Origin: Candidatus Saccharimonadota bacterium
GTDB lineage: Archaea; Micrarchaeota; Micrarchaeia; Micrarchaeales; Micrarchaeaceae
Direction: 5' to 3'
DNA: 32,000 nucleotides
NCBI GenBank assembly: GCA_963705375.1
Contig: OY970071.1
Coordinates: 1,170,001-1,202,000 of the forward strand
Each line of letters opens with the position of its first letter. The stretch's first letter is position 1. The position numbers and the translations under genes are program-made. Of the stretch, positions 1 through 30,220 are shown in pieces. The notes beneath the pieces are model-generated. The model had not been told where the DNA came from. It saw nothing but the letters and a program-made list of their open reading frames with translations, and made no database searches.

Positions 1-917
1 TCGTCTATGCTCTCTTTTATTTCGAACACTCTTTCCATGTTGATGCCTGCATTTTCCATTGCTTCTTTCTCGAACACATGCACCCTGACCCCCAGGCGCG
101 CTTCCCTAAGCCTTGGGATTATATTGTTGTTTATTTCTCCTATAAGGACTCTGCTGATGTTATCCTGTATGGCTTTCAGCGCATTTGTCACTTCTGCATC
201 CAGTTTCGCTTTCGTTTCTGCATTCACCGCATCTGACACTTCTTCATTCGGTACAAATTTAGCAGCATTCCTTGCAGCTGCCTCCAGTCTCATGTTGAGC
301 ACACGCATATTGCGTCCGTGCGCGAGCGATTCGGTAATTCCTAGCATCTCTTTGTTTATTGTGCAGGTGTGAGGGTTTTCATCAATTTTGGCTTGATCAT
401 ATTGCAGTACTGCGGCTAAACTCACAATGCCTTGCCACAGAACATGCACTTGCGCGGCGCCCTCAATGCTCAGAGGATCCTTGTCCTTAAAGTGATTCAT
501 AAGTGTGTAGAGCGGGTTCGTCTCTTCGTTCAAGGAGCCGATCTTCTTATCTGATCTGAGCGTACAGCCGTTCCCTGGCGCTTTCGCCTCTCCTGGTGCC
601 TCAACCCGTAAGAGCCTGCTGTTCTGGAGTCTGCTGTTTATGTTGCGTATCGGCTGAATCAAGATGGAGCTGCCGAAACTGCATTTTTCGAATGCAGCTA
701 TCATCTGGCCTATCAGTTCCGGGTCTTTTTTCAGCTTATCGTACTTATCAATGTACTCTTTAAATTCAAGAACTGCTTTTGCGTCATTGCTCTGGAGAGT
801 CGTCTTGTCCATACTTTCTATGGTCTCCTTTATCTCCGTCAGCCTGGCGAATCTTTGTGTTTCCTGAGCGTCATTGTCCTCTTGTGCGTTCTGCTCTTTT
901 TGTTTATCTGCGGGCAT
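1..917 (-). CDS. hypothetical protein, N-terminal ~305 codons (ORF continues past the left edge of the window)
   Basis: Manual reverse-complement translation from ATG (complement of 915-917) stays open to position 1: MPADKQKSRTHKRT...KAVLEFKEYIDKYDKLKKDPELIGQMIAAFEK...DPLSIEGAAQVHVLWQGIVSLAAVLQYDQ...LREARLGVRVHVFEKEAMENAGINMERVFEIKESID. It is missing from the ORF track because no stop lies inside the window. The + strand ORFs 7..372 and 664..867 are low-complexity antisense shadows of it. No family recognised. Confidence 0.6.
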   Translation of the reverse strand, partial: MPADKQKEQNAQEDNDAQETQRFARLTEIKETIESMDKTTLQSNDAKAVLEFKEYIDKYDKLKKDPELIGQMIAAFEKCSFGSSILIQPIRNINSRLQNSRLLRVEAPGEAKAPGNGCTLRSDKKIGSLNEETNPLYTLMNHFKDKDPLSIEGAAQVHVLWQGIVSLAAVLQYDQAKIDENPHTCTINKEMLGITESLAHGRNMRVLNMRLEAAARNAAKFVPNEEVSDAVNAETKAKLDAEVTNALKAIQDNISRVLIGEINNNIIPRLREARLGVRVHVFEKEAMENAGINMERVFEIKESID

Positions 918-1033
918 TCAATTACAGTAAATAATTAGTTTATCTAGATATACGCCTTGCTTTTTGATACGGCTTTTGACGTAGGGCTTTGCAGCATGCT
1001 CTATATCGCATGTACCGATATGCCAGAGCAAAG

Positions 1034-1041
1034 GTATATAT
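1034..1041 (+). promoter_or_regulatory. TATA-box-like element upstream of the first surface-protein gene
   Basis: gtatatat embedded in aaaggtatatattcg. The in-frame ATG at 1061 lies 27 nt downstream (leaderless option) and ATG 1178 lies further on. Confidence 0.35.
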
Positions 1042-1177
1042 TCGTTTAAGGAGCTCAATTATGCTTGTGGGATGTTGCAATCTGGCTATGCAACGTTCGT
1101 TGCCAGGTAGTGGTAAGAATAACGTGGAAATACGTGCGGTAGAGGGTGCGCTGGAGGGGGGTGTGATAAACGGCAAT

Positions 1178-3535
1178 ATGTTCAGAATCTTAGCCTTGCT
1201 TTCTCTGTTTGTAGGAATATTCTTTATGTCCGGCGTCGCCGGAGCAGTGACTGTGCCCACATCGATTACTTCCTACCTGCCCATAACGATCCAAAACGCA
1301 CAAACCTATGCGTTCCCATCAAACGCCCAAGTGCCAATTTCTTTTAACGCATTGGCATACCAATCATACGAATCAAACAGCCTCAACAATACCGAATTCT
1401 TCTTTGCGAACGGCACGATAATACCATCATGGCTTGAGGGCAACACTCTTAACGAGAATAATGCGGCAAATACCCTATACAAGAGTGCTAATGTTCTCTT
1501 CTGGTTGAGGATCTATCCAAGCAACAGCTTCTTCTGCGCATCATGCTCAAACACCATCTATCTCGGATTCGCTTCAAAAACCACAAGCATGCTAAGCAGC
1601 ACTATAACCGGCGAAGCACCACAGTTAAGCTCTTCTTATGGCGCTTATGATGACGGTGCAAACGTCTTTGCACTATATGACGACTTTACAGGCACAGCAC
1701 TGAACGCCAGATGGACCGAATGGGACTCATCTGCCGGAACGTTAGCTGTCTCAAACAGCCTTTCGCTCACGGCAACTTCCACTTCGCACGCATTTGGGGT
1801 GTATGTATCATATACTCCGACAACAAATGGAATTGTTACAGAAACATACCTTACTGCTACAAACCCGACTGCAGGATATAGGCTCTTCGAAGGATACGGC
1901 ACTCTTAGCTCATCAACTGCAGAACAGAACGGATATATCGGCAGGCTTGATGGAAATGGCAATCAGGCCCTTTATTTGTCTAGAATGTCTGCTGGAGTCC
2001 AGGCGGACATCTCAAACACACCTGACGTCTTGACGACTGGTGGCAACTACGTAAGCAGTCTTCTATGGCAGGGTAATTCTAATTCTCTATCCTTTGCTGA
2101 TCTGACTAATGGTCATTCGCTGCTTGCCACCAATACCCTCTATGGCCTTCCAAGCATGGCCCAAGTCTCAATCGCGCTTGGCGCTGCCACCAGCAACCAC
2201 TACATCACGCACTGGTTCCGGATAAGGCAGGCTCTTCCCAACAACGGAGTAGTTCCAACAGAAACATCTGGTGTGGTCACTCTTGCTGGCCTAACGGCAA
2301 CCCCTGACCCATACACGCTCACGAACACCTCCATAGACGTTAAGCAGATTTCGATTGCAAACACGATCATATCTGGAGGCACTTCCGGCACGACTTCCTA
2401 TACTGGCAACTGGGTATGGTCTCCACCCGCTTCATCAAACATAGTGCTCAGCAATACGATAATAGCTGCAATTCCAACAACAAACAACGCGCTGACGCTC
2501 ACAATCAACGCAGTCTCATCAAACAGCCTGAAGATGACTTTCAACGGCATAGTATATTATGCGAACGCGATAGGCACGAACACGATCTACGGGACATGGA
2601 CATTCAATGCGTTCGCAAGCGACGCTAACCATGATGCTGGTCCAAGCCCGGCTCTTACAAACACCCTAACAATATCAGCAACGCCGACTATCTCGGCACC
2701 GACGCCAACCAGTTCGAAGGTTGATGTCGGACAGACCCAGACAATAACCGCGACGATAACAGGAGGAACTCCGAACTACGTAGGAAACGCGATCATAACG
2801 AACTCAGGTTCGATAACGAACACGATCGCAGTACCGTCACAGTCAGGAACCTCATTGTCATCAACATGGACGACCGCTTCCAACGAGATAGGAACAGAGA
2901 CAGGAAACTTCGTGATGAAAGACGCAGTTTCAGTATCCTTCAACTCAATACCCTCAACATCATGGACCGTGTACAACACACTCTCCACACTGACAACGAC
3001 CGGTGCGACAATAGACAACGGACAGTCCAACACGATAACGGCAAGTTGGATCGGAGGCGCACCGAACTTCGCAGTCACATTGTTCTCAGGTTCTTCTGCA
3101 ACATGTTCATCTGACACGACTGTCGCGAACACGGCAGCATCTGTTTCAGGTCAATCGACGACATTCGTTGTCTCTCCGACCTCTTCAACATACTACTGCA
3201 TAGGGGTCAAGGACTCTGCGACATCTGCAGTCTCCGCAAACCAGGTGACTGCGGTTCAGATAGTGGTCAACCCGGCATTATCTATAACAAGTGTCTGGTC
3301 ATCGAACAGCATCGCAGACCAGTCACAATACGAGACAATAACCGGTTCATGGACAGGGGGCACATCTCCGTTCACAGCCAACTTCTACATCACAAACACG
3401 ATAACCGGAAACGTTATCGCAAATTCGCTCACGTCTACGACTTCACCTGCAACATTCACATTCCAGGTGCCCCAGACCAACGACGCACTAGGAGCGCCTC
3501 TGATCACGTTCACAGTTACGGATCAGAGCGGGTAA
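1178..3535 (+). CDS. secreted surface protein: signal peptide + DUF2341-like + LamG/ConA-like lectin region + Ig-like domains (B, A, cap); no membrane anchor
   Basis: ORF 989..3535. Likely start is ATG 1178 (MFRILALLSLFVGIFFMSGVAGA is a signal-peptide-like h-region); ATG 1061 is the alternative. 'PITIQN...NTEFFFANGTIIPSWLEGN...VLFWLRI...IYLGF' fits the DUF2341 pattern. 'GEAPQLSSSYGAYDDGANVF...HWFRIRQALPNNGVVP' fits the adjoining LamG/ConA-like domain. About 130 unique aa follow, then one B-type and one A-type ~99-aa domain and an ~85-aa terminal domain ending TFTVTDQSG*. There is no hydrophobic C-terminus. Confidence 0.85.
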   Translation: MFRILALLSLFVGIFFMSGVAGAVTVPTSITSYLPITIQNAQTYAFPSNAQVPISFNALAYQSYESNSLNNTEFFFANGTIIPSWLEGNTLNENNAANTLYKSANVLFWLRIYPSNSFFCASCSNTIYLGFASKTTSMLSSTITGEAPQLSSSYGAYDDGANVFALYDDFTGTALNARWTEWDSSAGTLAVSNSLSLTATSTSHAFGVYVSYTPTTNGIVTETYLTATNPTAGYRLFEGYGTLSSSTAEQNGYIGRLDGNGNQALYLSRMSAGVQADISNTPDVLTTGGNYVSSLLWQGNSNSLSFADLTNGHSLLATNTLYGLPSMAQVSIALGAATSNHYITHWFRIRQALPNNGVVPTETSGVVTLAGLTATPDPYTLTNTSIDVKQISIANTIISGGTSGTTSYTGNWVWSPPASSNIVLSNTIIAAIPTTNNALTLTINAVSSNSLKMTFNGIVYYANAIGTNTIYGTWTFNAFASDANHDAGPSPALTNTLTISATPTISAPTPTSSKVDVGQTQTITATITGGTPNYVGNAIITNSGSITNTIAVPSQSGTSLSSTWTTASNEIGTETGNFVMKDAVSVSFNSIPSTSWTVYNTLSTLTTTGATIDNGQSNTITASWIGGAPNFAVTLFSGSSATCSSDTTVANTAASVSGQSTTFVVSPTSSTYYCIGVKDSATSAVSANQVTAVQIVVNPALSITSVWSSNSIADQSQYETITGSWTGGTSPFTANFYITNTITGNVIANSLTSTTSPATFTFQVPQTNDALGAPLITFTVTDQSG

Positions 3536-3806
3536 TTCCGTATCAGCAACCAACATAACGCTAGATTTCAGCTGCACCAAACGTATATATACTCTCTATA
3601 CCGTGATTAAAGAAAGGGTTAGTGTCATAGCTGGCAAGTATACGCGAGGGTGGCTGTGCAAGATTTGTCGTTAGGTAACGGAGATACCATGGCTGTTGAG
3701 CTTAAGGTACAGAAGAAGGCTTCTTCGAAGAACAACGTATTGCGGCTTGTTTTCCTCTCATTTATCATTCTTCTGTTTTTGTTCGGGACCGGTGTTTCTT
3801 TTGCGG
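3257..3806 (+). repeat. junction cassette copy 1 (3' cap domain of gene 1 + stop + intergenic promoter/leader + signal-peptide codons of gene 2)
   Basis: Aligns base-for-base with 5123-5673, with only scattered substitutions (roughly 95% identical by eye). Weaker (~80%) homology extends upstream through the A-type domain from ~2990. Confidence 0.85.
3583..3592 (+). promoter_or_regulatory. TATA-box-like element of gene 2 (duplicated at 5450-5459)
   Basis: gtatatatac in caaacgtatatatactctc, about 95 nt upstream of ATG 3689. ggag (3678-3681) sits 7 nt before that ATG as a possible Shine-Dalgarno. Confidence 0.4.
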
Positions 3807-5401
3807 CAGGTTGCGGAACCCTTCCATCAGGCGTGTCTTCGTTTGTAGCATCATGCTACCCTGTAAACATAATCAACAGTCAGACACGCGCAACGTCTTC
3901 AGGTCTGCAGGTTAAGCTATCCAGCTATCCTGTCAACGCGCTTGCTGGCAACACCTTCGTGTACAACTCTGTTTCCGGGATGCAGATGCCCGCATGGGTC
4001 GAGTCCAACGGCATAGTGTGGGTGAACCTTGGCGCAAACACAATAGCTGCCAGTTCCTCAGCCAACAGTATCTATTATGTGGCAGTTGGCGGCTCTGGCA
4101 CAAACTTCTTCACTTCTGGCAACAACATAGGCGAAGCACCGCAATTGTCCGGCAGCAACACTGCGACAGGATATGGCACTTACGATAATGGAGCAAGCGT
4201 GTTCACGCAGTATGGTGGAAAGAGCTGGGCATCCTTCACGCCTGAGAACGGCGTATGGTTGACGTCAAACGGCTTCTTACAGCAAACGTCAAACACTGCA
4301 GGATCTACAACAAATGGCGGCGCTGCTGAAGTCATAACGGGTGCTTCGTACTCTGCAACCGGCAACTACATTCTAGAGCAGGCATTCAACTACTCCAACA
4401 ACGCAGTCGCAAGAGTCGGCATACTTGCAGTCGGAACGGTTGGTACTCAGAACGACGTCTATGCTTATAGGTTCATCGGCCAGCAGAACAACAACGGTGC
4501 AGGATTCTTAAGCTTCTTGAACGACCAAGTGGTATGGGTCGTAAACAACGCCTATCAGGGCGCTATGAACACTGCCTACACTATGTCCGTGACTGATGCT
4601 GCGGGCACATGGAGTGGAAATCTCATCTCAGGCTACAATACTGGTGGGGCTGTACTGACAAGCCTTGCAGCGACGGCGTACTCAACAGCAAACAAGCAAA
4701 GTGCAACTACTGGCTATGTTGGCATAAGTGCATCATGGTACAATGGCGCCAACACTGTGGCCAACCCGCTTGATGTCCAGTGGTTCAGGATGCGAACGTA
4801 TCCTCCTAATGGCGTCATGCCGACCGTGAACTATCTGGCTGCGATATCGCATCCTTATTCTCCATCAACAACTGGCGCAACAATAGATAACGGCCGGTCA
4901 AACACGATAATTGCTAGCTGGTTAGGTGGCGTGGCTAACTTCGCGATCACGTTATTCTCAGGTTCATCATCAACATGTTCATCTGACACAACTGTCGCCA
5001 ACACGGCATCATCTGTCGCAGGACAGTCAACGACATTCGTTGTTTCTCCGACGAGCAACACATACTACTGCATAGGGGTCAAGGACGCTAACGCAGGAGT
5101 TGCGAATCAGGTCACTGCAAATCAGATAGTGGTCAACCCTGTACTATCCATCACAAGTGTCTGGTCATCGAACAACATCGCAGACCAGCTTCAGTATGAG
5201 ACGATAACCGGTTCGTGGACAGGAGGTACATCTCCGTTCACAGCCAACTTCTACATCACAAACACGATCAACGGAAACGTTATCGCAAATTCGCTCACGT
5301 CTGCGACTTCACCTGCGACATTCACATTCCAGGTGCCCCAGACCAACAATGCGCTAGGAGCGCCTCTGATCACGTTCACAGTTGCTGATCAGAGCGGGTA
5401 A
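3689..5401 (+). CDS. secreted surface protein: signal peptide + DUF2341-like + LamG/ConA-like lectin region + A-type Ig-like domain + cap domain; no membrane anchor
   Basis: ORF 3650..5401, where the track start is a GTG. ATG 3689 is preceded by ggag and gives MAVELKVQKKASSKNNVLRLVFLSFIILLFLFGTGVSFA (basic n-region plus h-region). 'YPVNIINSQ...NTFVYNSVSGMQMPAWVESNGIVWVNL...IYYVAVG' is DUF2341-like. 'GEAPQLSGSNTATGYGTYDNGASVF...VQWFRMRTYPPNGVMP' is LamG-like. The C-terminal ~190 aa are paralogous to the gene 1 C-terminus and end TFTVADQSG*. Confidence 0.85.
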   Translation: MAVELKVQKKASSKNNVLRLVFLSFIILLFLFGTGVSFAAGCGTLPSGVSSFVASCYPVNIINSQTRATSSGLQVKLSSYPVNALAGNTFVYNSVSGMQMPAWVESNGIVWVNLGANTIAASSSANSIYYVAVGGSGTNFFTSGNNIGEAPQLSGSNTATGYGTYDNGASVFTQYGGKSWASFTPENGVWLTSNGFLQQTSNTAGSTTNGGAAEVITGASYSATGNYILEQAFNYSNNAVARVGILAVGTVGTQNDVYAYRFIGQQNNNGAGFLSFLNDQVVWVVNNAYQGAMNTAYTMSVTDAAGTWSGNLISGYNTGGAVLTSLAATAYSTANKQSATTGYVGISASWYNGANTVANPLDVQWFRMRTYPPNGVMPTVNYLAAISHPYSPSTTGATIDNGRSNTIIASWLGGVANFAITLFSGSSSTCSSDTTVANTASSVAGQSTTFVVSPTSNTYYCIGVKDANAGVANQVTANQIVVNPVLSITSVWSSNNIADQLQYETITGSWTGGTSPFTANFYITNTINGNVIANSLTSATSPATFTFQVPQTNNALGAPLITFTVADQSG

Positions 5402-5673
5402 TTCCGTATCTGCAACCAACATAACGCTAGATTTTCGCTGCAACCAAACGTATATATACTCTCTATACCGTGATTAAAGAAAGGGTTAGTGTCATAGCTG
5501 GCAAGTATACGCGAGGGTGGCTGTGCAAGATTCGTCGTTAGGTAACGGAGATACCATGGATGTGGGGCTTAAGGTACAGAAGAAGGCTTCTTCGAAGAAC
5601 AACGTATTGCGGCTTGTTTCCCTTTCTTTTATCATTATTCTGTTTTTGTTCGGGACCGGTGTTTCTTTTGCGG
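5123..5673 (+). repeat. junction cassette copy 2 (3' cap domain of gene 2 + stop + intergenic promoter/leader + signal-peptide codons of gene 3)
   Basis: Direct repeat of 3257-3806, including the non-coding 150 bp, the TATA element and the ggag-ATG context. Confidence 0.85.
5450..5459 (+). promoter_or_regulatory. TATA-box-like element of the giant surface-protein gene
   Basis: The same gtatatatac element as 3583-3592, inside the duplicated cassette. ATG 5556 is preceded by ggag. Confidence 0.4.
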
Positions 5674-8600
5674 GTAGTTCCGCATCGGCGACCAACACAT
5701 TCGGCGTCAACGCGCTGCTCACTTCACTTTCAACGACAGGCGCGACGATAGACAATGGCCAGTCCAACACGATAACGGCAAGTTGGACAGGCGGAACATC
5801 GAACTTCGCAATCACCCTCTTCTCAGGTACATTGTCTACCTGCTCCTCTGACACCACTGTCGCTAACACGGCATCTGGCGTTTCTGGGCATTCAACGACA
5901 TTCGTTGTGTCGCCAACCAGCAACACATACTACTGCATAGGTGTGAAGGACAGCGCATCCACTGCCAACACCGCGAACCAGGTAACTGCAGTCCAGATAG
6001 TGGTCAATGCCGCACCGTCCATTTCGCAGCCAACGCCGACAAGTGCGAAGGTCGACGTCGGACAAACGCAGACCATAACCGCGACAATAACGGGCGGAAC
6101 ACCGAACTACGTAGGAAACGCGATCGTAACGAAAGTGGGAGTTATCACAAATACCATTGCAGTTCCTTCACAGGCAGGAACATCACTGACATCAACATGG
6201 ACAACTGCATCTAACGAGATCGGAACAGAGACTGCAAACTACGTGATGAAGGATTCGCTGTCCACATCATTCAACTCAGTCCCATCAACATCCTGGACTG
6301 TTTACAACACGCTCTCTACTCTGACAACGACAGGCGCGACGATTGACAATGGCCAGTCCAACACGATAACCGCGAACTGGATTGGCGGCGCACCGAACTT
6401 CGCAGTAACACTCTTCTCAGGTTCATCCGCAACATGCTCATCTGACACGACTGTCGCGAACACCGCATCAGGCGTCTCAGGTCAATCGACGACATTCGTC
6501 GTCTCTCCAACCAGCAGCACATACTATTGCATAGGTGTGAAGGACTCTGCCTCTACGGCAGTCTCCGCGAACCAGGTCACTGCGGTGCAGATAGTGGTCA
6601 ATGCAGTACCTTCCGTATCACAACCGACTCCGACAAGTGCGAAGGTCGACGTCGGCCAGACACAGACAATAACCGCGACGATAACAGGCGGAACTCCGAA
6701 CTACGTAGGAAACGCGATCATAACAAAAGCAGGAGTTCCCACTAACACTATCGCAGTCCCATCTCAGGCAGGAACTGCACTGTCCTCAACATGGACGACC
6801 GCTTCCAACGAGATAGGAACAGAGACAGGAAACTTCGTGATGAAGGACTCGCTCTCAACATCATTCAACTCAGTCCCATCAACATCCTGGACTGTTTACA
6901 ACACGCTCTCTACTCTGACAACGACAGGCGCGACGATTGACAATGGCCAGTCCAACACGATAACCGCGAACTGGATTGGCGGCGCACCGAACTTCGCAGT
7001 AACACTCTTCTCAGGTTCATCCGCAACATGCTCATCTGACACGACTGTCGCGAACACCGCATCAGGCGTCTCAGGTCAATCGACGACATTCGTCGTCTCT
7101 CCAACCAGCAGCACATACTATTGCATAGGTGTGAAGGACTCTGCCTCTACGGCAGTCTCCGCGAACCAGGTCACTGCGGTGCAGATAGTGGTCAATGCAG
7201 TACCTTCCGTATCACAACCGACTCCGACAAGTGCGAAGGTCGACGTCGGCCAGACACAGACAATAACCGCGACGATAACAGGCGGAACTCCGAACTACGT
7301 AGGAAACGCGATCATAACAAAAGCAGGAGTTCCCACTAACACTATCGCAGTCCCATCTCAGGCAGGAACTGCACTGTCCTCAACATGGACGACCGCTTCC
7401 AACGAGATAGGAACAGAGACAGGAAACTTCGTGATGAAGGACTCGCTCTCAACATCATTCAACTCAGTCCCATCAACATCCTGGACTGTTTACAACACGC
7501 TCTCTACTCTGACAACGACAGGCGCGACGATTGACAATGGCCAGTCCAACACGATAACAGCGAACTGGATTGGCGGCGCACCGAACTTCGCAGTAACATT
7601 ATTCTCAGGTTCATCATCAACATGTTCATCTGACACGACTGTCGCGAACACCGCATCAGGCGTCTCAGGTCAATCGACGACATTCGTCGTCTCTCCAACC
7701 AGTAGCACATACTATTGCATAGGTGTGAAGGACTCTGCCTCTACGGCAGTCTCCGCGAACCAGGTCACTGCGGTGCAGATAGTGGTCAATGCAGTACCTT
7801 CCGTATCACAACCGACTCCGACAAGTGCGAAGGTCGACGTCGGCCAGACACAGACAATAACCGCGACGATAACAGGCGGAACTCCGAACTACGTAGGAAA
7901 CGCGATAATAACAAAAGCAGGGGTTCCCACTAACACTATCGCAGTCCCATCTCAGGCAGGAACTGCACTGTCCTCAACATGGACGACCGCTTCCAACGAG
8001 ATAGGAACAGAGACAGGAAACTTCGTGATGAAGGACTCGCTCTCAACATCATTCAACTCAGTGCCTTCGACATCGTGGACCGTGTACAACACACTCTCCA
8101 CACTGACAACTACCGGCGCAACAATCAACAATGGACAAAGTAACACTATAACCGCGAACTGGATAGGAGGTGCGCCGAACTTCGTTGTAACATTATTCTC
8201 CGGTTCATCATCTACCTGTTCCTCTGACACGACTGTTGCCAACACGGCATCAGGTGTCTCAGGACAATCGACGACATTCGTTGTGACTCCATCAAGTAGT
8301 ACCTACTACTGCATAGGAGTCAAGGACTCTGCTTCAACAGCGGTTTCCGCGAACCAGGTAACCGCAGTCCAGATAGTGGTGAATGCTGGACCCTCAATAT
8401 CGCAGCCAACCCCGACAAGTTCGAAGGTTGATGTGGGACAGACGCAGACCATATCAGCGACAATAACGGGCGGAACACCGAACTACGTAGGAAACGCGAT
8501 AATAACGAACTCAGGGGCGACTACGAACACTATCGCAGTCCCATCTCAGGCAGGAACTGCACTGTCCTCAACATGGACGACCGCTTCCAATGAGATAGGA

Positions 8601-11123
8601 ACAGAGACTGGAAACTTCGTGATGAAGGATTCGCTGTCCACATCATTCAACTCAGTCCCATCAACATCCTGGACTGTTTACAACACGCTCTCTACTCTGA
8701 CAACGACAGGCGCGACGATCGACAACGGACAGTCCAACACGATAACAGCGAACTGGATCGGCGGAGCGCCAAACTTCGCAGTCACACTGTTCTCAGGTTC
8801 ATCTGCGACATGCTCATCTGACACCACAGTGGTCACAACCACATCAGGTGTCTCGGGACAATCAACGACATTCAGTATCTCTCCAACCAGCAACACATAT
8901 TACTGCATAGGCGTCAAGGACTCTGCGACATCCGCAGTCTCCGCGAACCAGGTCACTGCGATGCAGATAACAGTCAATGCCGCACCGTCAATCTCACAAC
9001 CAACACCTACAGCTGCTAAGGTCGATGTCGGACAGACCCAGACAATATCTGCGACAATAACGGGAGGAACTCCGAACTACGTAGGAAACGCGATCGTAAC
9101 GAACTCAGGGGCGACTACGAACACTATCGCAGTCCTATCTCAGGCAGGAACTGCACTGTCCTCAACATGGACGACCGCTTCCAATGAGATAGGAACAGAG
9201 ACTGGAAACTTCGTGATGAAGGACGCGTTCCCAGTTTCATTCAACTCAGTTCCTTCAACATCATGGACGGTGTATAACACACTCTCCACTCTTACAACCA
9301 CGGGCGCGACAATAGACAACGGCCAGTCCAACACGATAACCGCGAACTGGATCGGAGGCGCACCGAACTTCACAGTGACATTATTCTCAGGTTCATCAGC
9401 GACATGCTCATCTGACACGACTGTCGCGAACACCGCATCAGGCGTCTCAGGTCAATCGACGACATTCGTCGTCTCTCCAACCAGCAGCACATACTATTGC
9501 ATAGGTGTGAAGGACTCTGCCTCTACGGCAGTCTCCGCGAACCAGGTCACTGCGGTGCAGATAGTGGTCAATGCAGTACCTTCCGTATCACAACCGACTC
9601 CGACAAGTGCGAAGGTCGACGTCGGCCAGACACAGACAATAACCGCGACGATAACAGGCGGAACTCCGAACTACGTAGGAAACGCGATCATAACAAAAGC
9701 AGGAGTCCCCACTAACACTATCGCAGTCCCGTCACAGGCAGGAACATCATTGTCCTCAACATGGACGACCGCTTCCAATGAGATAGGAACAGAGACTGGA
9801 AACTTCGTGATGAAGGACTCGCTCTCAACATCATTCAACTCAATACCTTCAACATCATGGACAGTGTACAACACACTTTCAACTCTTACAACAACAGGCG
9901 CGACGATCGACAACGGACAGTCCAACACGATAACCGCGAACTGGATCGGCGGCGCACCGAACTTCGCAGTGACATTATTCTCCGGTTCATCAGCGACATG
10001 CTCATCTGACACGACTGTCGCGAACACCGCATCAGGCGTCTCAGGTCAATCGACGACATTCGTCGTCTCTCCAACCAGCAGCACATACTATTGCATAGGT
10101 GTGAAGGACTCTGCCTCTACGGCAGTCTCCGCGAACCAGGTCACTGCGGTGCAGATAGTGGTCAATGCAGTACCTTCCGTATCACAACCGACTCCGACAA
10201 GTGCGAAGGTCGACGTCGGCCAGACACAGACAATAACCGCGACGATAACAGGCGGAACTCCGAACTACGTAGGAAACGCGATCATAACAAAAGCAGGAGT
10301 CCCCACTAACACTATCGCAGTCCCGTCACAGGCAGGAACATCATTGTCCTCAACATGGACGACCGCTTCCAACGAGATAGGAACAGAGACAGGAAACTTC
10401 GTGATGAAGGACTCGCTCTCAACATCATTCAACTCAATACCTTCAACATCATGGACAGTGTACAACACACTCTCAACTCTTACAACAACAGGCGCGACGA
10501 TTGACAACGGACAGTCCAACACGATAACAGCGAACTGGATCGGAGGCGCACCGAACTTCGCAGTAACATTATTCTCAGGTTCATCATCAACATGTTCATC
10601 TGACACAACTGTCGCGAACACCGCATCAGGCGTCTCAGGTCAATCGACGACATTCGTCGTCTCTCCAACCAGCAGCACATACTACTGCATAGGAGTCAAG
10701 GACTCTGCTTCAACAGCGGTTTCCGCGAACCAGGTCACTGCGGTGCAGATAGTGGTCAATGCAGTACCTTCCGTATCACAACCGACTCCGACAAGTGCGA
10801 AGGTCGACGTCGGACAGACGCAGACCATAACTGCGACAATAACGGGCGGAACACCGAACTACGTAGGAAACGCGATAATAACGAACTCAGGGGCGACTAC
10901 GAACACTATCGCAGTCCCGTCACAGGCAGGAACATCATTGTCCTCAACATGGACGACCGCTTCCAACGAGATAGGAACAGAGACAGGAAACTTCGTGATG
11001 AAGGACTCGCTCTCAACATCATTCAACTCAATACCTTCAACATCATGGACAGTGTACAACACACTCTCAACTCTTACAACAACAGGCGCGACGATTGACA
11101 ACGGACAAAGTCCAACACGATAA
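5556..11123 (+). CDS. giant surface protein, N-terminal portion (signal peptide + A/B Ig-like repeat array), terminated prematurely by a +2 indel near 11107-11113
   Basis: ORF 5517..11123, where the track start is GTG. ATG 5556 gives MDVGLKVQKKASSKNNVLRLVSLSFIIILFLFGTGVSFA, near-identical to the gene 2 signal peptide. No DUF2341/LamG head follows; the sequence runs straight into alternating ~99-aa A (TTGATIDNGQSNTITANWIGG...YYCIGVKD...VQIVVNA) and B (PSVSQPTPTSAKVDVGQTQTITATITGGTPNYVGN...WTVYNTLS) domains. It ends ...TIDNGQSPTR*, where every other copy reads TIDNGQSNTITANW. Confidence 0.8.
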   Translation: MDVGLKVQKKASSKNNVLRLVSLSFIIILFLFGTGVSFAGSSASATNTFGVNALLTSLSTTGATIDNGQSNTITASWTGGTSNFAITLFSGTLSTCSSDTTVANTASGVSGHSTTFVVSPTSNTYYCIGVKDSASTANTANQVTAVQIVVNAAPSISQPTPTSAKVDVGQTQTITATITGGTPNYVGNAIVTKVGVITNTIAVPSQAGTSLTSTWTTASNEIGTETANYVMKDSLSTSFNSVPSTSWTVYNTLSTLTTTGATIDNGQSNTITANWIGGAPNFAVTLFSGSSATCSSDTTVANTASGVSGQSTTFVVSPTSSTYYCIGVKDSASTAVSANQVTAVQIVVNAVPSVSQPTPTSAKVDVGQTQTITATITGGTPNYVGNAIITKAGVPTNTIAVPSQAGTALSSTWTTASNEIGTETGNFVMKDSLSTSFNSVPSTSWTVYNTLSTLTTTGATIDNGQSNTITANWIGGAPNFAVTLFSGSSATCSSDTTVANTASGVSGQSTTFVVSPTSSTYYCIGVKDSASTAVSANQVTAVQIVVNAVPSVSQPTPTSAKVDVGQTQTITATITGGTPNYVGNAIITKAGVPTNTIAVPSQAGTALSSTWTTASNEIGTETGNFVMKDSLSTSFNSVPSTSWTVYNTLSTLTTTGATIDNGQSNTITANWIGGAPNFAVTLFSGSSSTCSSDTTVANTASGVSGQSTTFVVSPTSSTYYCIGVKDSASTAVSANQVTAVQIVVNAVPSVSQPTPTSAKVDVGQTQTITATITGGTPNYVGNAIITKAGVPTNTIAVPSQAGTALSSTWTTASNEIGTETGNFVMKDSLSTSFNSVPSTSWTVYNTLSTLTTTGATINNGQSNTITANWIGGAPNFVVTLFSGSSSTCSSDTTVANTASGVSGQSTTFVVTPSSSTYYCIGVKDSASTAVSANQVTAVQIVVNAGPSISQPTPTSSKVDVGQTQTISATITGGTPNYVGNAIITNSGATTNTIAVPSQAGTALSSTWTTASNEIGTETGNFVMKDSLSTSFNSVPSTSWTVYNTLSTLTTTGATIDNGQSNTITANWIGGAPNFAVTLFSGSSATCSSDTTVVTTTSGVSGQSTTFSISPTSNTYYCIGVKDSATSAVSANQVTAMQITVNAAPSISQPTPTAAKVDVGQTQTISATITGGTPNYVGNAIVTNSGATTNTIAVLSQAGTALSSTWTTASNEIGTETGNFVMKDAFPVSFNSVPSTSWTVYNTLSTLTTTGATIDNGQSNTITANWIGGAPNFTVTLFSGSSATCSSDTTVANTASGVSGQSTTFVVSPTSSTYYCIGVKDSASTAVSANQVTAVQIVVNAVPSVSQPTPTSAKVDVGQTQTITATITGGTPNYVGNAIITKAGVPTNTIAVPSQAGTSLSSTWTTASNEIGTETGNFVMKDSLSTSFNSIPSTSWTVYNTLSTLTTTGATIDNGQSNTITANWIGGAPNFAVTLFSGSSATCSSDTTVANTASGVSGQSTTFVVSPTSSTYYCIGVKDSASTAVSANQVTAVQIVVNAVPSVSQPTPTSAKVDVGQTQTITATITGGTPNYVGNAIITKAGVPTNTIAVPSQAGTSLSSTWTTASNEIGTETGNFVMKDSLSTSFNSIPSTSWTVYNTLSTLTTTGATIDNGQSNTITANWIGGAPNFAVTLFSGSSSTCSSDTTVANTASGVSGQSTTFVVSPTSSTYYCIGVKDSASTAVSANQVTAVQIVVNAVPSVSQPTPTSAKVDVGQTQTITATITGGTPNYVGNAIITNSGATTNTIAVPSQAGTSLSSTWTTASNEIGTETGNFVMKDSLSTSFNSIPSTSWTVYNTLSTLTTTGATIDNGQSPTR

Positions 11124-11955
11124 CAGCGAACTGGATCGGAGGCGCGCCGAACTTCGCAGTAACATTATTCTCAGGTTCATCATCAACATGTTCATCTGAC
11201 ACAACTGTCGCGAACACCGCATCAGGCGTCTCAGGTCAATCGACGACATTCGTCGTCTCTCCAACCAGCAGCACATACTACTGCATAGGAGTCAAGGACT
11301 CTGCGACATCCGCGGTCTCCGCGAACCAGGTCACTGCGATGCAGATAGTAGTCAATGCCGCACCTTCAATCTCACAACCAACACCTACAGCTGCTAAGGT
11401 CGATGTCGGACAGACCCAGACAATATCTGCGACAATAACAGGCGGAACACCGAACTACGTAGGAAACGCGATAATAACGAACTCAGGGGCGACTACGAAC
11501 ACTATCGCAGTCCCGTCACAGGCAGGAACATGCATTGTCCTCAACATGGACAACTGCTTCTAACGAGATCGGAACAGAGACTGCAAACTTCGTGATGAAG
11601 GATTCGCTGTCCACATCATTCAACTCAGTCCCATCAACATCCTGGACTGTTTACAACACGCTCTCTACTCTGACAACGACAGGCGCGACGATTGACAATG
11701 GCCAGTCCAACACGATAACCGCGAACTGGATTGGCGGCGCACCGAACTTCGCAGTAACATTATTCTCAGGTTCATCAGCGACATGTTCATCTGACACGAC
11801 TGTCGCGAACACCGCATCAGGCGTCTCAGGTCAATCGACGACATTCGTCGTCTCTCCAACCAGCAGCACATACTACTGCATAGGAGTCAAGGACTCTGCT
11901 TCAACAGCGGTTTCCGCGAACCAGGTCACTGCGGTGCAGATAACAGTCAATGCCG
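5717..11955 (+). repeat. coding tandem array, 594-bp period (A+B domain pair, 198 aa), about 10.5 copies
   Basis: Unit starts fall at 5717, 6311, 6905, 7499, 8093, 8687, 9281, 9875, 10469, 11063 and 11660; the last interval is 597 bp because of the two indels. Copies 6311-6904 and 6905-7498 read as identical by eye, and the others differ by a few percent. Periodic antisense shadow ORFs in the track (6316, 6910, 7504...) reflect the same period. Confidence 0.95.
11114..11531 (+). other. frame-shifted internal segment of the giant surface-protein gene (normal A10/B10 repeat sequence readable only in the other frame)
   Basis: From 11114 the shifted frame reads NTITANWIGGAPNFAVTLFSGSSSTCSS...MQIVVNAAPSISQPTPTAAKVDVGQTQTISATITGGTPNYVGN...PSQAGT without stops. 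Track ORF 11339..11563 is part of it. It is bounded by a +2 indel (ggacaAAgtccaac, 11103-11116) and a +1 indel (aacatGcattgtcc, extra g at 11532). Confidence 0.8.
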
Positions 11956-14900
11956 CACTAGGAATGCCTTTAATCTCTCCGACAACTGCAACAATCGACA
12001 ACGGCCAGTCGATATCGATGACTGCAAGTGAGACTGGAGGGACTATTCCATACACGTATTCCTGGTACGCACAGACAAGTTGTGGAGGTTCGGTGGTCAA
12101 CACAGGCTCTTCATATTCACCATCTCCGAGCTCAACAACCACTTACTCAATAAAAGTGACAGACAACGCAGGAGCGACATCTTCCTGCTCATCAGGAACG
12201 ACCGTGACAGTTGACACTCCAAGTGCCTTACTGACCGTATCAAACACGATAGCAGACTCAGGACAGTATGAGGTCCTTACTGCGACAGTTACGGGCGGAG
12301 TCGGGCCATACACTGTTAAATTCTACAACATCAGCAAGTCTGCAGTATTCAACACAGTCTCAAGTGTGGCATCTTCAACAACGAACGCATTCGTGGTATC
12401 AAGCCCGACAAACTCGAACACCTTCAACTGGAACGTCATAGTGATAGACACGACTACCTCTGGCTCGTTCACATTCAACTCTCCATCTAATTCGTTCACG
12501 GTCAACACTATGCTTGCAACGCCTTCGATCTCTCCATCGAACCCTGTATTCGATAACGGTCAGTCAACAACGCTTACTGCAATCGAAACAACGAGCGGAA
12601 CGCTTCCGCTTTCGTATCAGTGGTATTCTGATGGTGCCTGCACAACCCCGATAAGCGGTCAGACTGGAGCAACTTACTCGCCAGCATCATCAGGCACATA
12701 CTCTGTCAAAGTGACTGATTCTGCTTCGACTCAAGCATCGCAATGCTCGTCCAGTGACACAGTAACCATAAGTTCATCTGCACTTTCGGCAGGCACGGTT
12801 ACCGAAAGCAACACTGCTATTGATGTTGGCCAGAATTCCCTGCTTACTGCCAATCCAAGCGGTGGCACGGCACCTTATACCTACCAGTGGTATTCTGGTA
12901 CTTCTCCAACTGGTACACTAATATCTGGAGCAACAAGCCAGACCTTGCTCGTAAGCCCATCAGCCACTACAAGCTATTATGCATCCATAACAGACAGTGC
13001 GACAACACACGTTACTTCTAATTCAATTTCAAACACCATAACTGTTTACAACACACCGACCGTGACAATCACCAACCCATCGCTCACAGAAGACGTCGGC
13101 CAGTCCGTGACCTTCACCACAACCAACACACCAGGTTCGGGCTCAGACACATACCAGTGGTACAACACGACTTCCGGCATCGTTCAGATTTCGGGCCAGA
13201 CTGGCACTTCACTTACAGTCTCGGGCGGCGCAATAGGCACCTTCACCTATAATGTTGTCATAACCGATTCTAACGGGGCGAAATCTACGTCTGGTACAGG
13301 TTCTGTTGTAGTTTATGCATTACCGACCGTGACAATCACCAACCCATCGCTCACAGAAGACGTCGGCCAGTCCGTGACCTTCACCACAACCAACACACCA
13401 GGTTCGGGCTCAGATACATACCAGTGGTACAACACAACTTCGGGCGTCGTTCAGATTTCAGGCCAGACGGGCACTTCGCTTACAGTCTCGGGCGGCGCAA
13501 TAGGCACCTTCACCTATAATGTTGTCATAACCGACTCAAACGGAAAGAAAGCAACATCCGGCACAGGCTCTGTTGTTGTAGGTAATGCACCATCTGTTAC
13601 TATAACCAATCCATCTCTTTCTGAAGGGGTGGGTCAAAGTGTGACCTTCACCACAACGAACACTCCCGGTTCGGGCTCAGACACCTACCGTTGGTATAAC
13701 ACGACTTCGGGCGTTGTCGCAATTCCTGGCCAAACTGGCACTTCGCTTACAGTTTCTGGCGGCGCAACAGGCACATTCACCTATAATGTCGTAATAACAG
13801 ATTCCAACGGGGCTAAAGCAGCATCTGGTACAGGGACTGTTGTTGTCACTGCAGCACCAACAGTGACGATAACTAACCCCTCTCTTGCAGAGGGAATTGG
13901 CCAATCTGTGACCTTCACCACAACCAACACACCAGGTTCGGGCTCAGACACCTACCAATGGTACAACACCACTTCTGGCATCGTTCAGATTTCAGGCCAG
14001 ACTGGCACTTCACTTACCGTTTCTGGCGGTGCAATAGGCACATTCACTTACAACGTGATCATAACCGACTCTCACGGCCTGCATTCGTCTTCGAATACTG
14101 GCACGGTTGTTGTCACAAACGCTCCGACAGTCACAATCACCAACCCTTCACTAAACGAGGACATCGGCCAGTCCGTGACATTTACCACAACGAACACGCC
14201 AGGTTCGGGTTCGGACACCTACCAGTGGTACAACACCACTTCAGGCGTTGCCGTAATGTCCGGCCAGACCGGCACTTCTCTCATGGTAACGGGTGGAGCA
14301 ACAGGCACCTTCGCCTATAATGTTGTCATAACTGACTCTGTGGGAAAGAGCGCGACATCGAATGCAGGAACGGTTGTTGTTGGCAACGCACCAACAGTCA
14401 CAATTACCAATCCGTCGCTTTCAGAAGTTGTCGGTCAGAATGTTGTATTCGCCACAACCAACACTCCTGGTTCGGGCTCAGACACCTACCAGTGGTACAA
14501 CACCACCTCTAGCGTTGCCGTAATGTCAGGCCAGACAGGTACTTCTCTGACTGTGCCAGGCGGAGCCACCGGAACATTTACCTATAATGTGGTCATAACA
14601 GACTCCTACGGTGCGAAATCTTCATCGAATACAGGAAACGTTGTAGTCAATGTGTATGTTCCGGGCACCATCTCGGCGCCGACACCAAGTCTATCCGTAT
14701 CTGATGTTGGGCAGTCCGTAGTTTACAATGCGGTCATAACCGGCGGTGCAGGGCCGTTCGTAGCTAACTTCGTATATTCCAATGGCACTGTCGCAAACAC
14801 CTTGTTCGCCAACACTCTGATGAGCTCAAGTGCCAGGTCTTTGACATTCAATTCTATACATCTGTCAACAGGTACCTATACTTACAACATAGTGGTAACA

Positions 14901-17315: not shown

Positions 17316-17391
17316 GCCTGACGCTTACTAGCATTGCGAAGACCCTACGAAAACTATAAAAACCAAGCCTGGACTTAAATAGCTGAGATAG

Positions 17392-19536: not shown

Positions 19537-19588
19537 ACTAAAAAAAGACATGCTTATATCTTTTATGGTTGATGCTTAATATGGTTAT

Positions 19589-20086
19589 ATGGGTGGGGAT
19601 ATAGTTTATTTGGACGTAGACAGACGCGCCTTAAAAGACATAAAATATATTAGGCTTAAGACCATACTCTCCACCGTGGGTAGCATTTCTACGGGTGTGC
19701 TGCAGATGTCTCTATTGAAACTTATCGGCGCACCACAATTCAAAGGCAAGGTGTCAGGCGAATGTGTGCGATACTTATATGCTTCTGCCTTCTTGAGCTT
19801 TGCCGGTAGGGAAATAAACAAAAAATCCCTTAGTTCTGTGCTAAAAAGTGTGGGCATAAAGCCGAAAGAAGAATGCATAAATACCTTCCTAAAGACTGGC
19901 ATCGAGAGCCATTTGGTGTATTTATACGCATATTATTTCCTACTTGCTAATAGGCTAGCGGCCTCTGACGAAAACATGTCCGGAGTGATAAAATCTCTTG
20001 GAATGAAACCCGATAAAGAACGGATAAATGCCGCGCGCGGTTTTGTACGGATATACCCATTCACACCTGCCCCGAAAATACGATAG
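19589..20086 (+). CDS. ribosomal stalk protein P1 (L12Ae) N-terminal-domain-like protein, tandemly duplicated domain, no acidic C-terminal tail
   Basis: '(V)RYLYASAFLSFAGREINKKSLSSVLKSVGIKPKEECINTFLKTGIE' and 'LVYLYAYYFLLANRLAASDENMSGVIKSLGMKPDKERINAARGFV' each align well with the archaeal P1 N-terminus as I recall it ([47 protein letters not shown]). A weaker third copy may lie at the N-terminus (IKYIRLKTILSTVGSIS...LKLIGAPQFK). The protein ends RIYPFTPAPKIR* with no Ala/Glu/Lys-rich linker or tail. The start is uncertain: ATG 19589, or GTG 19766 directly before RYLYA. Confidence 0.65.
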   Translation: MGGDIVYLDVDRRALKDIKYIRLKTILSTVGSISTGVLQMSLLKLIGAPQFKGKVSGECVRYLYASAFLSFAGREINKKSLSSVLKSVGIKPKEECINTFLKTGIESHLVYLYAYYFLLANRLAASDENMSGVIKSLGMKPDKERINAARGFVRIYPFTPAPKIR

Positions 20087-30124: not shown

Positions 30125-30220
30125 TGCCGCAGGCAGGATTTGAACCTGCGACATTTCGCTTTTTGACAAGCAGAAATTGCTTGACTTCAGGCGAACGCTC
30201 TCCCACTGAGCTACTGCAGC
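30125..30220 (-). tRNA. tRNA-Phe (anticodon GAA) with a 24-nt intron at the canonical 37/38 position
   Basis: The reverse complement folds by hand into a cloverleaf. Acceptor is GCUGCAG/CUGCGGC (one G-U pair) with discriminator A. D stem is GCUC/GAGC. Anticodon stem is UUCGC/GCGAA with loop C-U-GAA-G-[intron UCAAGCAAUUUCUGCUUGUCAAAA = 30161-30184]-A. Variable loop is AUGUC. T arm is GCAGG-UUCAAAU-CCUGC. CCA is not encoded. A TATA-like tttatatt (complement of 30246-30253) lies ~26-33 nt upstream. Confidence 0.85.

Follow-up and report, generated by a model that had tools for sequence, protein, structure and literature searches.

A repeated block that straddles two consecutive gene boundaries within the window (the whole stretch of 32,000 nucleotides of DNA analysed here) is likely to represent a junction unit of tandem, modular surface-protein genes, probably from a member of the Micrarchaeota (DPANN), and to be a chimera of two parts. 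The left part would correspond to the distal piece of an ordinary internal Ig-like domain, in which the insertion of a single T (+1) would put the ensuing linker out of frame, and the right part would correspond to the BRE/TATA promoter, leader and Sec-type signal peptide that belong to the second gene (g2) itself. At the boundary between the first and second genes (g1|g2) the right half would lie in its original place, while at the g2|g3 boundary a secondary copy of the promoter, leader and signal peptide appears to have been joined to the linker through a GCG(G) microhomology. The comparative evidence strongly supports the reading of this second copy as the mark of fission of a head-stalk-anchor adhesin: what the relatives encode as a single protein, running from a signal peptide through a lectin head and an Ig stalk to a membrane anchor, is here predicted to be made as two products, a head (g2) that is secreted but has no anchor, and a stalk with its anchor (g3+g4) that is exported on its own. 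The g1 gene is likewise truncated.

The anatomy of the block, the frameshift and coding relic common to its copies, the continuity of the gene in relatives, where the right half came from and the mosaic profile of identity are all matters of direct observation, in a comparison that covers two relatives (L001 and L002, the assembly of the latter being noisy, with frameshifts). Several histories, including tandem duplication followed by deletion, integration of a circle, and conversion, would fit these two-relative data.

Organization of the locus

The features of the locus are as follows (coordinates are those of the window).

1030-1043: TATA-like promoter of g1 (motif)
1061..3535, + strand: g1, encoding secreted protein P0007 (824 aa, same 1.2-Mb contig; open reading frame and translation); signal peptide ending ...MFRILALLSLFVGIFFMSGVAGA (translation); domain order lectin-like N-domain 1, 'mid', B and A Ig-like, then cap
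3257..3532, + strand: copy 1, left half; the cap (a C-type Ig-like domain), last 92 codons of g1 (alignments)
3523..3535, + strand: copy 1, stop; T insertion (+1) at 3523, TAA at 3533-3535 (alignment)
3524..3559, + strand: copy 1, frameshifted linker relic (alignments)
3560..3574, + strand: copy 1, stretch between the linker relic and the L002-promoter homology; ancestral rearrangement breakpoint
3575..3649, + strand: copy 1, native g2 promoter and 5' leader (L002 homology, motif)
3575-3592, + strand: BRE/TATA-like CACCAAACGTATATATAC, predicted promoter of g2
3650..3805, + strand: copy 1, N-terminal extension and g2 signal peptide ...KVQKKASSKNNVLRLVFLSFIILLFLFGTGVSFA, with inferred cleavage after SFA
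3806..5122, + strand: unique segment between the copies; lectin-like N-domain 2 and g2 A domain
5123..5398, + strand: copy 2, left half; the cap that ends g2 (alignments)
5389..5425, + strand: copy 2, T insertion (5389), TAA (5399-5401) and linker relic (5390-5425) (alignments)
5441..5516, + strand: copy 2, secondary g2 promoter and leader, with TATA at 5446-5459 (alignment, motif)
5517..5672, + strand: copy 2, N-terminal extension and signal peptide fused to g3; start at GTG 5517 or ATG 5556
5556..17315, + strand: g3 and g4, one giant stalk gene (open reading frames)
5670..5704, + strand: g3 signal peptide|linker junction, with GCG(G) microhomology, then the intact linker GSSASATNTFG

The products of g1 and g2, which lie on the same strand, share alignable signal peptides and N-domains that are 28% identical over approximately 450 residues; their 3' ends, in contrast, are 86% identical, which indicates that they are old paralogues with incongruent phylogenies along a single reading frame. 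The g1 product has no C-terminal membrane anchor. The N-domain of g2 was modelled by AlphaFold with pLDDT values above 90 across most of residues 40-390, and Foldseek matched it to CBM66, legume lectins and the C-terminal domain of GH43 (E of about 1e-5; target-relative TM 0.5-0.65), making it a candidate lectin-like beta-sandwich of the concanavalin-A/CBM kind; the only Pfam match was a weak one to DUF2341, in g1. In the unique segment at 3806-5122, DNA identity is approximately 85% with L001 and 78% with L002. The N-domain and A domain of g2 are nearest to those relatives (78-85%), whereas its distal cap is nearest to that of g1 (94%, versus approximately 80% to the relatives). The g2 orthologue in L001 bears a g1-type signal peptide, indicating that 5' modules have been swapped between relatives. 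The g3+g4 stalk consists of about ten A-B units of 594 bp, together with other Ig/PKD-like repeats and a C-terminal membrane anchor, and is interrupted only by indels of +2 nt (11107-11108) and +1 nt (11532).

Extent and identity of the repeated block

Local alignment and blastn both placed 3257-3806 against 5123-5673 at 93.5% identity over 550/551 nt, with 35 substituted positions and a single gap, a 1-nt indel at 3575/5442; the original prediction had judged by eye that the two blocks align base for base, with scattered substitutions, at roughly 95%, and the repeat is confirmed as real. Each copy contains, as had been described, 92 codons of the upstream gene, a TAA, a spacer of 153/154 nt, and the start and signal peptide of the next gene. 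The boundaries of the block fall inside coding sequence, with the stop, spacer and start alike between copies, and the view that the repeated unit is a gene junction rather than a gene is therefore upheld: the 3' end of one gene, the spacer and the next 5' end are all alike at 93.5%. No third copy was found by blastn within the 32-kb window.

Pairwise alignment of the separate parts demonstrated that the similarity extends beyond coding sequence. Identity between copies is 91.3% in the coding part of the cap (with 13 synonymous and 7 non-synonymous codon changes), 92.9% across the stop and the next 39 nt, 74/74 in the promoter and leader (3576-3649), 97.4% at 3650-3688, and 94.1% in the signal-peptide part. 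While the spacer had been described as being as conserved as its coding flanks, it is thus highly conserved but in fact exceeds them. Read from left to right, the block forms a mosaic of 84% (3271-3361), 94%, 99% and 94% identity (Fisher tests, P = 0.004 and P = 0.02-0.04), within which a core at 3571-3692 matches at 121/122 positions; the difference between the core and its flanks is of marginal significance (P = 0.02-0.04) and could in part reflect selection on the promoter.

Over 3271-3361, which makes up the first third of the cap, the copies share 84% identity, and either copy shares 80-87% with L001 or L002; because the copies are no closer to each other there than to the relatives, similarity above background is confined to approximately 3362-3806. 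Beyond that point, 3362-3532 of copy 1 is 94% identical to copy 2 and approximately 80% identical to the relatives. The left edge of the recent tract therefore fades at about 3362, within the homologous cap domain, and copy 2 ends on its right in a non-homologous join of signal peptide to linker that displays only the GCG(G) microhomology. Further upstream, homology of about 80% through the A domain had been noted, and unequal crossing-over between A domains had been proposed as what would produce a duplicated junction. The homology itself is real (approximately 78% between copies), but it corresponds merely to the background of a 13-copy A-domain family, and an identity matrix placed the g1 A domain nearer to its counterparts in the g3 array (83-84%) than to the one in g2. 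The proposed crossing-over was rejected on the strength of that matrix, and the tract has its left edge in the cap.

It is extremely unlikely that the second copy is an artefact of assembly, created by a chimeric or looped path through repeats or by the merging of strains. The locus is indeed highly repetitive, with compensating g3/g4 indels and two identical 594-bp units that may signal assembly problems close by, but the copies differ by the substitutions and indel described above, with 13 of the 20 changed cap codons altered synonymously. Both flanking junctions of each copy lie in unique sequence, where reading frames are kept and the SFA|G cleavage context is clean; L002 provides independent confirmation of the junction on the right of copy 1, and the source contig is 1.2 Mb in length.

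Origin of the promoter, leader and signal peptide

Comparison with L002 traced the right half of the block to the lectin-head gene g2, whose native 5' end it forms. Positions 7842-8071 of L002 align with the window from 3575 onwards at 75-79% identity, while the gene located upstream of the g2 orthologue in that relative encodes the DNA polymerase DP2, and the cap is absent there. The TATA-like element AAACGTATATATAC is found in the spacer at 3579-3592 in copy 1 and at 5446-5459 in copy 2. The translation start of g2 may be GTG 3650 or 3656, or else ATG 3689, from which the protein P0001 was annotated; L002 lacks the ATG at 3689, yet conserves the GTG and the reading frame. Candidate start codons are preceded by GGAG or GAGG, and the 39 codons that follow ATG 3689 or 5556 carry an intact signal peptide and close with SFA at 3805 or 5672, respectively. 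The use of the promoter, the start codon and the site of signal-peptide cleavage are predictions from the sequence. Among eight differences between copies in the promoter-signal peptide region, six have the L002-like state in copy 2, the supposedly secondary one, which weighs against that order of the copies.

The near-identity of the spacers might be ascribed to a promoter, leader or small RNA that is under strong purifying selection, and the perfect match of 74/74 at 3576-3649, set against 6-9% divergence in the coding flanks, together with conservation of the BRE/TATA element in L002, would be in keeping with that. However, against L002 (7842-7915, with the TATA conserved) identity over that stretch falls to 75%, which is no better than the signal-peptide coding part at 78%; the spacer is thus not specially constrained between species, and an explanation by selection is exceedingly improbable. 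A riboswitch or structured RNA leader was ruled out, the leader having no Rfam match and no stable fold (z = +1.1). The contrast between 75% identity to L002 and 74/74 identity within the genome instead argues for recent duplication or conversion, in agreement with the original prediction that protein selection alone does not account for the similarity. A scan for bacterial-type promoters and terminators, using a model ill-suited to an archaeon, returned counts equal to those of shuffled sequence. Neither homopolymers nor short tandem tracts are present in the spacer.

Origin of the stop and of the linker relic

The terminal caps in the window are the only two such occurrences. In L001, at four places in L002, and in the paralogue P0055 from the same 1.2-Mb contig, the cap, which had been regarded as a terminal domain, instead lies inside the protein and reads without a stop into a GSSASTTNTFGVN linker that is followed by additional Ig-like domains. 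In L001 one uninterrupted open reading frame of at least 1195 codons passes from the cap through the linker into the A' domain; a single reading frame of L002 takes in three cap-linker junctions, and P0055 is also continuous. Both copies in the window share an inserted T (GATCAG, versus GA-CAG in five of five cap-linker junctions of the relatives), which places the TAA in frame. Behind it, the +1 frame of the relic reads GNSVSATNI, as compared to GSSASATNT in the linker, and the DNA at 3528-3559 matches the intact g3 linker at 5670-5701 in 25/32 positions (P = 4e-10). Homology to the relatives' linker fades beyond approximately 3555, and homology to the L002 5' region begins at 3575. Stops in all three frames of the spacer rule out read-through or frameshifting across it. 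No oligo-T terminator was seen downstream of the stop, so that one transcript may cover several genes, with the internal promoters perhaps dispensable.

Once its signal peptide is removed, g3 would start with GSSASATNTFGVN, the counterpart of the linker GGSASTTNTFGVN that follows the cap in the relatives; because the mature g3 would thus begin with the linker itself, copy 2 appears to mark a fission. The claim that the block halts and restarts a repeat protein accordingly fared differently at its two positions: it gains strong comparative support at g2|g3, where the gene is continuous in L001, L002 and P0055 and where the frameshift and relic are present, but at g1|g2 nothing except the distant protein P0057 hints that the gene was once continuous.

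The opposite polarity, in which the split arrangement is ancestral, the block represents the conserved end and start of paralogues that arose by tandem duplication, and the reading frames of the relatives arose through later fusions by deletion, was judged very unlikely. Gene fusions are generally commoner than fissions, and a 32-nt direct repeat (relic and linker, 25/32) that flanks the promoter-signal peptide of copy 2 could mediate a fusing deletion. Against this, the sequence that follows the stop is a former coding linker in a shifted frame, lying behind a 1-nt insertion that is absent from five of five junctions in the relatives, which argues that the split state is derived. The continuous cap-linker junction is also found in three contexts that are independent of one another, one of them a paralogue within this genome, and the promoter and signal peptide lie natively upstream of N-domain 2 in L002, next to an unrelated gene. 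Finally, the promoter-signal peptide copies are 94-100% identical to one another and 75-79% identical to L002, and the duplication is therefore younger than the split between lineages.

A model for the history of the junction

The fission reading may be extended into a sequence of events. The junction would have arisen once, either through a microhomology-mediated duplication followed by a deletion, or through an insertion, after which homologous recombination or gene conversion would have carried a copy of it to the other boundary, with the cap providing homology on the left and the promoter-signal peptide region on the right. The copied tract would span approximately 3362-3806, of which the core (3571-3692) may have been homogenised most recently. 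Each copy would provide the gene downstream of it with signals for transcription, translation and export.

Whether the block might instead be a dedicated mobile or programmed module, such as a promoter-bearing miniature element or a phase-variation cassette, was considered and found highly improbable. Its occurrence twice with identical internal breakpoints, the 32-nt imperfect direct repeat that flanks copy 2, the swapping of 5' modules between relatives (the g1-type signal peptide on the L001 g2 orthologue), and the prospect that 550-bp direct repeats would allow g2 to loop out as an 1866-bp circle, all lend it some appeal. The absence of terminal inverted repeats, on which grounds a mobile element was ruled out, weighs against it, as do the lack of a recombinase or transposase among the Pfam-scanned reading frames of the window, the lack of a flanking duplication at copy 1 (the right half of which is native), and a left edge that fades inside a homologous domain in the manner of a conversion tract rather than the end of an element.

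Searches for the module elsewhere also failed to reveal it outside the lineage, whether among representative proteins or in JGI metagenomes. An exhaustive HMMER search of 1.84 billion representative proteins with the leader and signal peptide recovered only P0002, the L002 orthologue, and a word-indexed search with the 52-aa leader and signal peptide gave no candidates. A word-indexed search with the A domain and cap gave nothing significant, a weak result from a tool that also missed the window's own proteins. A 20-mer common to the three known signal-peptide copies was matched at eight loci in the JGI metagenomes, none of which showed blastn similarity to positions 1-20000 of the window, and these are therefore chance matches. 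Taken with the absence of inverted termini, these results lend no support to the notion of a 'portable' cassette.

A separate and unlikely reading treats the two 550-bp repeats as a recombination substrate through which a population could reversibly gain, lose or swap lectin heads, g2 being excised as an 1866-bp circle and re-integrated. On that reading the duplicated promoter-signal peptide module would give DPANN archaea in general a means of turning one giant anchored adhesin into secreted heads and an anchored stalk, and the architecture of their surface proteins would be a variable trait, possibly linked to host range.

Comparison with known systems

The variable surface lipoprotein families of mycoplasmas (vsp, vlp and vsa) possess conserved 5' untranslated and signal-peptide regions and undergo phase variation by means of site-specific recombinases or the slippage of promoter tracts; only their 5' module is conserved. 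As in those families, neighbouring repeat-rich surface genes here share a near-identical upstream region and signal peptide, with recombination shuffling the gene bodies. Unlike them, the conserved unit here also takes in the 3' end and stop of the preceding gene; its copies are direct rather than inverted, and neither a recombinase (in Pfam-scanned reading frames) nor a switch motif was found in the window. The block also differs from a transposable element in that copy 1 has no flanking repeat resembling a target-site duplication, and the 32-nt repeat at copy 2 is imperfect.

Prokaryotic gene fission offers a second comparison. The orthologue in relatives is continuous, the split parts still lie side by side on one strand in their original order, and the upstream part has gained a stop and the downstream part start signals. 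What differs is that the exported downstream half also needs a new signal peptide; in place of signals formed de novo, it has a duplicate of the promoter, leader and signal peptide of its parent gene, and this junction would later have spread to another boundary.

The nearest known parallel is the junction-spanning unit of the lpl genes in Staphylococcus aureus (Tsuru & Kobayashi 2008, PMC2568036). Both cases involve exported proteins whose paralogous genes lie in tandem; in both, the end of one reading frame, the intergenic region and the start of the next are conserved as a unit, and the 5' and 3' parts of a single reading frame have incongruent histories. The lpl unit is attributed to homologous recombination within conserved internal sequence, which may also account for the present one. 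The lpl unit, however, is bacterial and was inferred from many strains, whereas the present unit is archaeal and is described from one genome and two relatives; the lpl genes are small and every strain carries them complete, whereas here the junction breaks a reading frame that is a continuous giant elsewhere. A frameshift-made stop, a coding relic and the reuse of a gene's own promoter and signal peptide further distinguish the archaeal case. A further comparison is with giant modular adhesins that combine a head at the N-terminus, a stalk of Ig-like repeats and an anchor at the C-terminus, such as the products of the tandem giant genes of Apilactobacillus kunkeei (PMC12863079), which likewise encodes consecutive, very large extracellular repeat proteins with signal peptides in a small genome; no recent gene conversion between those giant genes was reported (PMC12863079), whereas conversion or duplication of a junction is central here.

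Implications for surface-protein evolution

These observations describe a well-documented, local case of gene splitting by recombination, rather than a new kind of molecular system. It is a rare prokaryotic gene fission that can be read step by step, from a stop created by one nucleotide and the coding relic behind it to the copied restart signals and the microhomology joins. Fission of the gene for an exported protein requires a new signal peptide, and in this case the 5' end of the parent gene itself supplies one. The locus also extends to Archaea the idea that the evolutionary unit of a tandem cluster can be a gene junction. The large surface proteins of DPANN archaea are thought to mediate attachment to their hosts, and a lectin-like head detached from stalk and anchor would be displayed in a different way.

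The duplicated junction and its setting

Exported modular proteins are encoded by four consecutive same-strand genes, g1 to g4, and the window that holds them is part of a 1,209,602-bp contig. Its closest match among genomes is an uncultured Candidatus Micrarchaeota MAG, which makes the source probably a Micrarchaeota archaeon. N-domains 1 and 2 are predicted lectin-like domains, the cap is a C-type Ig-like domain, and A, B and 'mid' are other Ig-like or modular domains.

Genes of the surface-protein cluster
About 1061-3535, +, g1: own signal peptide, N-domain 1, 'mid', B, A, cap
3650/3689-5401, +, g2: cassette signal peptide, N-domain 2, A, cap
5517/5556-11123, +, g3: cassette signal peptide, linker, nine A-B units of 594 bp
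11535-17315, +, g4: further Ig/PKD-like repeats, C-terminal transmembrane anchor

The predicted duplication of a gene junction was confirmed by local alignment and by blastn, in which 3257-3806 (the g1|g2 boundary) and 5123-5673 (the g2|g3 boundary) are 93.5% identical over 550/551 nt, with one 1-nt indel at 5442; no third copy was found in the window by blastn.

Contents of both cassette copies
3533-3535 and 5399-5401, +: stop codon TAA, preceded by the last 92 codons of a gene, which encode the cap
3579-3592 and 5446-5459, +: AAACGTATATATAC, within a spacer of 153/154 nt
3689 and 5556, +: ATG, followed by 39 codons to ...GTGVSFA

Functionally, each copy would furnish a stop and, for the gene that follows, a BRE/TATA-like promoter, a start and a Sec-type signal peptide. 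Inspection of the sequence revealed no oligo-T terminator at the cassette, so that co-transcription of the genes is also possible.

The g2 N-domain was modelled with high confidence as a beta-sandwich similar (by Foldseek) to CBM66 and legume lectins, and this predicted head, taken with the composition of g3 and g4, gives g2 and g3/g4 together the head, stalk and anchor parts of an adhesin. The latter two genes form a single frame that two indels interrupt, one of +2 (AA, 11107-11108) and one of +1 (11532), and the 141 codons between these contain no stop in the third frame; either sequencing or polishing went wrong in the 594-bp array, or the giant stalk gene was disrupted very recently.

That tandem array (198 codons per unit, A+B Ig-like domains) comprises approximately 10-11 units at 5717-11960. 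In its units 2 and 3 the A-domain parts show 100% identity across 290 nt, and several other units reach 93-98% with one another, which indicates that the array was very recently amplified or homogenised. A second tandem array, within g4 (13056-14690), consists of six 267-bp units (89-codon PKD/Ig-like domains) with 67-87% identity. Adjoining the cluster, on the minus strand, are genes for a NiFe-hydrogenase large subunit-like protein (21060-22466) and for a full-length serpin (27419-28699; Pfam E = 1.6e-112), an uncommon protein for a small DPANN-type genome. A 96-nt tRNA at 30125-30220 on the same strand (Rfam, 61.6 bits), not reported by ARAGORN, is probably an intron-containing archaeal tRNA.

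The continuous state in relatives

In a GTDB Micrarchaeota contig (L001) that displays approximately 85% DNA identity to g2 across window positions 3800-5136, a single uninterrupted reading frame of at least 1195 codons encodes, in order, a signal peptide, N-domain 2, A, an insert, 'mid' and the cap, which runs directly into ...TFTVTDSVSGSASTTNTIGFNSVLV and an A-like domain. A second relative, the ENA metagenome contig L002 (sample ERZ25039480; 78-80% identity, noisy assembly), encodes a signal peptide, N-domain 2, A and more domains, and then four successive 579-bp units of cap, linker and A'. Three of these lie within one reading frame; each reads ...TFTITDSLGGSASTTNTFGVNSLLV... The paralogue P0055, which shares the window's 1.2-Mb contig, likewise reads ...TFTVTDSAGSSASTTNTFGVNSLLV..., and of all the proteins retrieved only g1 and g2 end in a cap. 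Once its signal peptide is removed, g3 would begin with GSSASATNTFGVNALL, the same linker that follows the cap in the relatives; what is a g2|g3 boundary here is thus an uninterrupted inter-domain linker elsewhere.

Several further differences were noted among these proteins. In P0057, from another organism, 'mid' runs on without a stop or signal peptide into a lectin domain of the N-domain-2 type (...LTNTITIMAACGNVPSGLVVSCIPIDLVN...), a hint that in some lineages the g1|g2 boundary, too, may match a continuous junction. Relative to L001, g2 lacks approximately 1.3 kb (insert and 'mid') between A and cap (window 5132-5136; L001 11391 / 12689), and the flanking blastn alignments share 5 nt of the window, a pattern compatible with a microhomology deletion. 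The B-A unit between 'mid' and cap in g1 is absent from L001. In L002, both the gene for DP2 (DNA polymerase) and the giant surface gene are split by frameshifts into many short reading frames (4265-6817, 9156-9308, 12811, 13260-13370); the contig resembles an unpolished long-read assembly, and its gene calls, including the 419-residue P0002, are accordingly truncated artefacts.

Against all five of the cap-linker junctions of the relatives, both window copies contain an extra T (3523 / 5389; GATCAG versus GA-CAG) that brings the TAA into frame; without it, the frame would still meet a stop at 3671-3673. The approximately 32 nt that come next align without gaps to linker coding sequence and read GNSVSATNI in the +1 frame, and this relic (3528-3559) matches the intact linker of g3 (5670-5701) at 25 of 32 positions (P = 4e-10). 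By this comparison, the cassette stop is a derived state. Read-through across the spacer is excluded by stops in all three frames.

Origin of the restart half

Beginning at 3575, the cassette can be aligned to the 5' region of the orthologue in L002 (7842-8071), across the TATA element, leader and signal peptide (75% identity for promoter and leader, 78% for signal peptide). Upstream of that point L002 harbors the DP2 gene and no cap; the right half of copy 1 is therefore native to g2, and the right half of copy 2 is a secondary copy set before the linker. At the join between signal peptide and linker, the parental sequences have only GCG(G) in common, which suggests that it was microhomology-mediated. 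The ATG at 3689 is not kept in L002, but GTG 3650/3656 and the reading frame are, which may place the true start upstream of that annotated ATG.

The g2 orthologue in L001 bears a different, g1-type 5' module (L001 9921-10042; 68% identity to window 1114-1232), implying exchange of 5' modules within the family. The g1 5' region itself (window 1030-1240) contains a TATA-like AAAGGTATATATTC, an in-frame N-terminal extension with ...SGKNNV... and a signal peptide, and is an old paralogue of the cassette right half. Whole promoter-signal peptide modules have therefore been swapped between genes in different lineages, the join always falling at the signal-peptidase site.

Extent of the probable recent exchange

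Identity between the copies is unevenly distributed. The coding part of the cap is 91.3% identical (13 synonymous and 7 non-synonymous codon changes), the signal peptide 94.1%, and the promoter and leader (3576-3649) match at 74 of 74 positions.

Identity between copies along the cassette (copy 1 coordinates, +)
3271-3361: 84%, level with each copy's match to L001 and L002 (80-87%); first third of cap
3362-3570: 94%
3571-3692: 99% (121/122, one substitution); core
3693-3806: 94%

The rise from 84% to 94% is significant (P = 0.004, Fisher test), the difference between the core and its flanks marginally so (P = 0.02-0.04, Fisher tests), and across 3362-3522 the copies are 94% identical to one another versus approximately 80% to the relatives. 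Because the core is no more conserved between species than coding sequence, and displays neither an Rfam match nor a stable fold, the pattern is consistent with a recent event of gene conversion or duplication in which the promoter core was the last part to be homogenised. The original prediction, in taking the junction as the unit and its exchange as recent, is upheld to that extent; its further proposal, of unequal crossing-over between A domains, is not supported. While the upstream A-domain homology that it cited is real (approximately 78%), the g1 A domain is nearer to those of the g3 array (83-84%) than to that of g2 (78%), so that this similarity represents family background.

Proposed route and comparison with known systems

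The alignments show the cassette to be a chimera, with a cap-linker that is continuous in relatives and a mosaic of identities, and the frameshift, relic and breakpoint common to both copies point to a single origin. The junction would have arisen once, when a copy of the promoter, leader and signal peptide landed after a cap and the first 32 nt of its linker, possibly via tandem duplication of the g2 unit and a subsequent deletion from the signal-peptide end to the linker at GCGG, or alternatively by direct insertion. Recombination through homology in the cap (left) and the promoter-signal peptide (right) may later have moved the junction to the other boundary, truncating g1.

The closest precedent is the Staphylococcus aureus lpl cluster, in which the conserved evolutionary unit comprises the 3' end of one reading frame, the intergenic region together with the 5' end of the next (PMC2568036); the window locus displays its defining features as far as these are testable. 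Circle excision and re-integration, by which that cluster was modelled (PMC2568036), would yield the same repeat-unique-repeat structure. The sequence features expected of a gene fission are likewise present, with evidence for its polarity. A mobile element was rejected, as the cassette possesses no inverted termini and no copies were found outside the L002/window lineage in the collections searched, and the tests applied for a recombinase-driven phase-variation system gave negative results at this locus.

Least certain here are expression, the support of the assembly for copy 2, and the order in which events took place. Recombination of a junction unit in a tandem surface-gene cluster here documents the fission of a giant archaeal adhesin, in which the adhesin gene's own promoter and signal peptide were reused.
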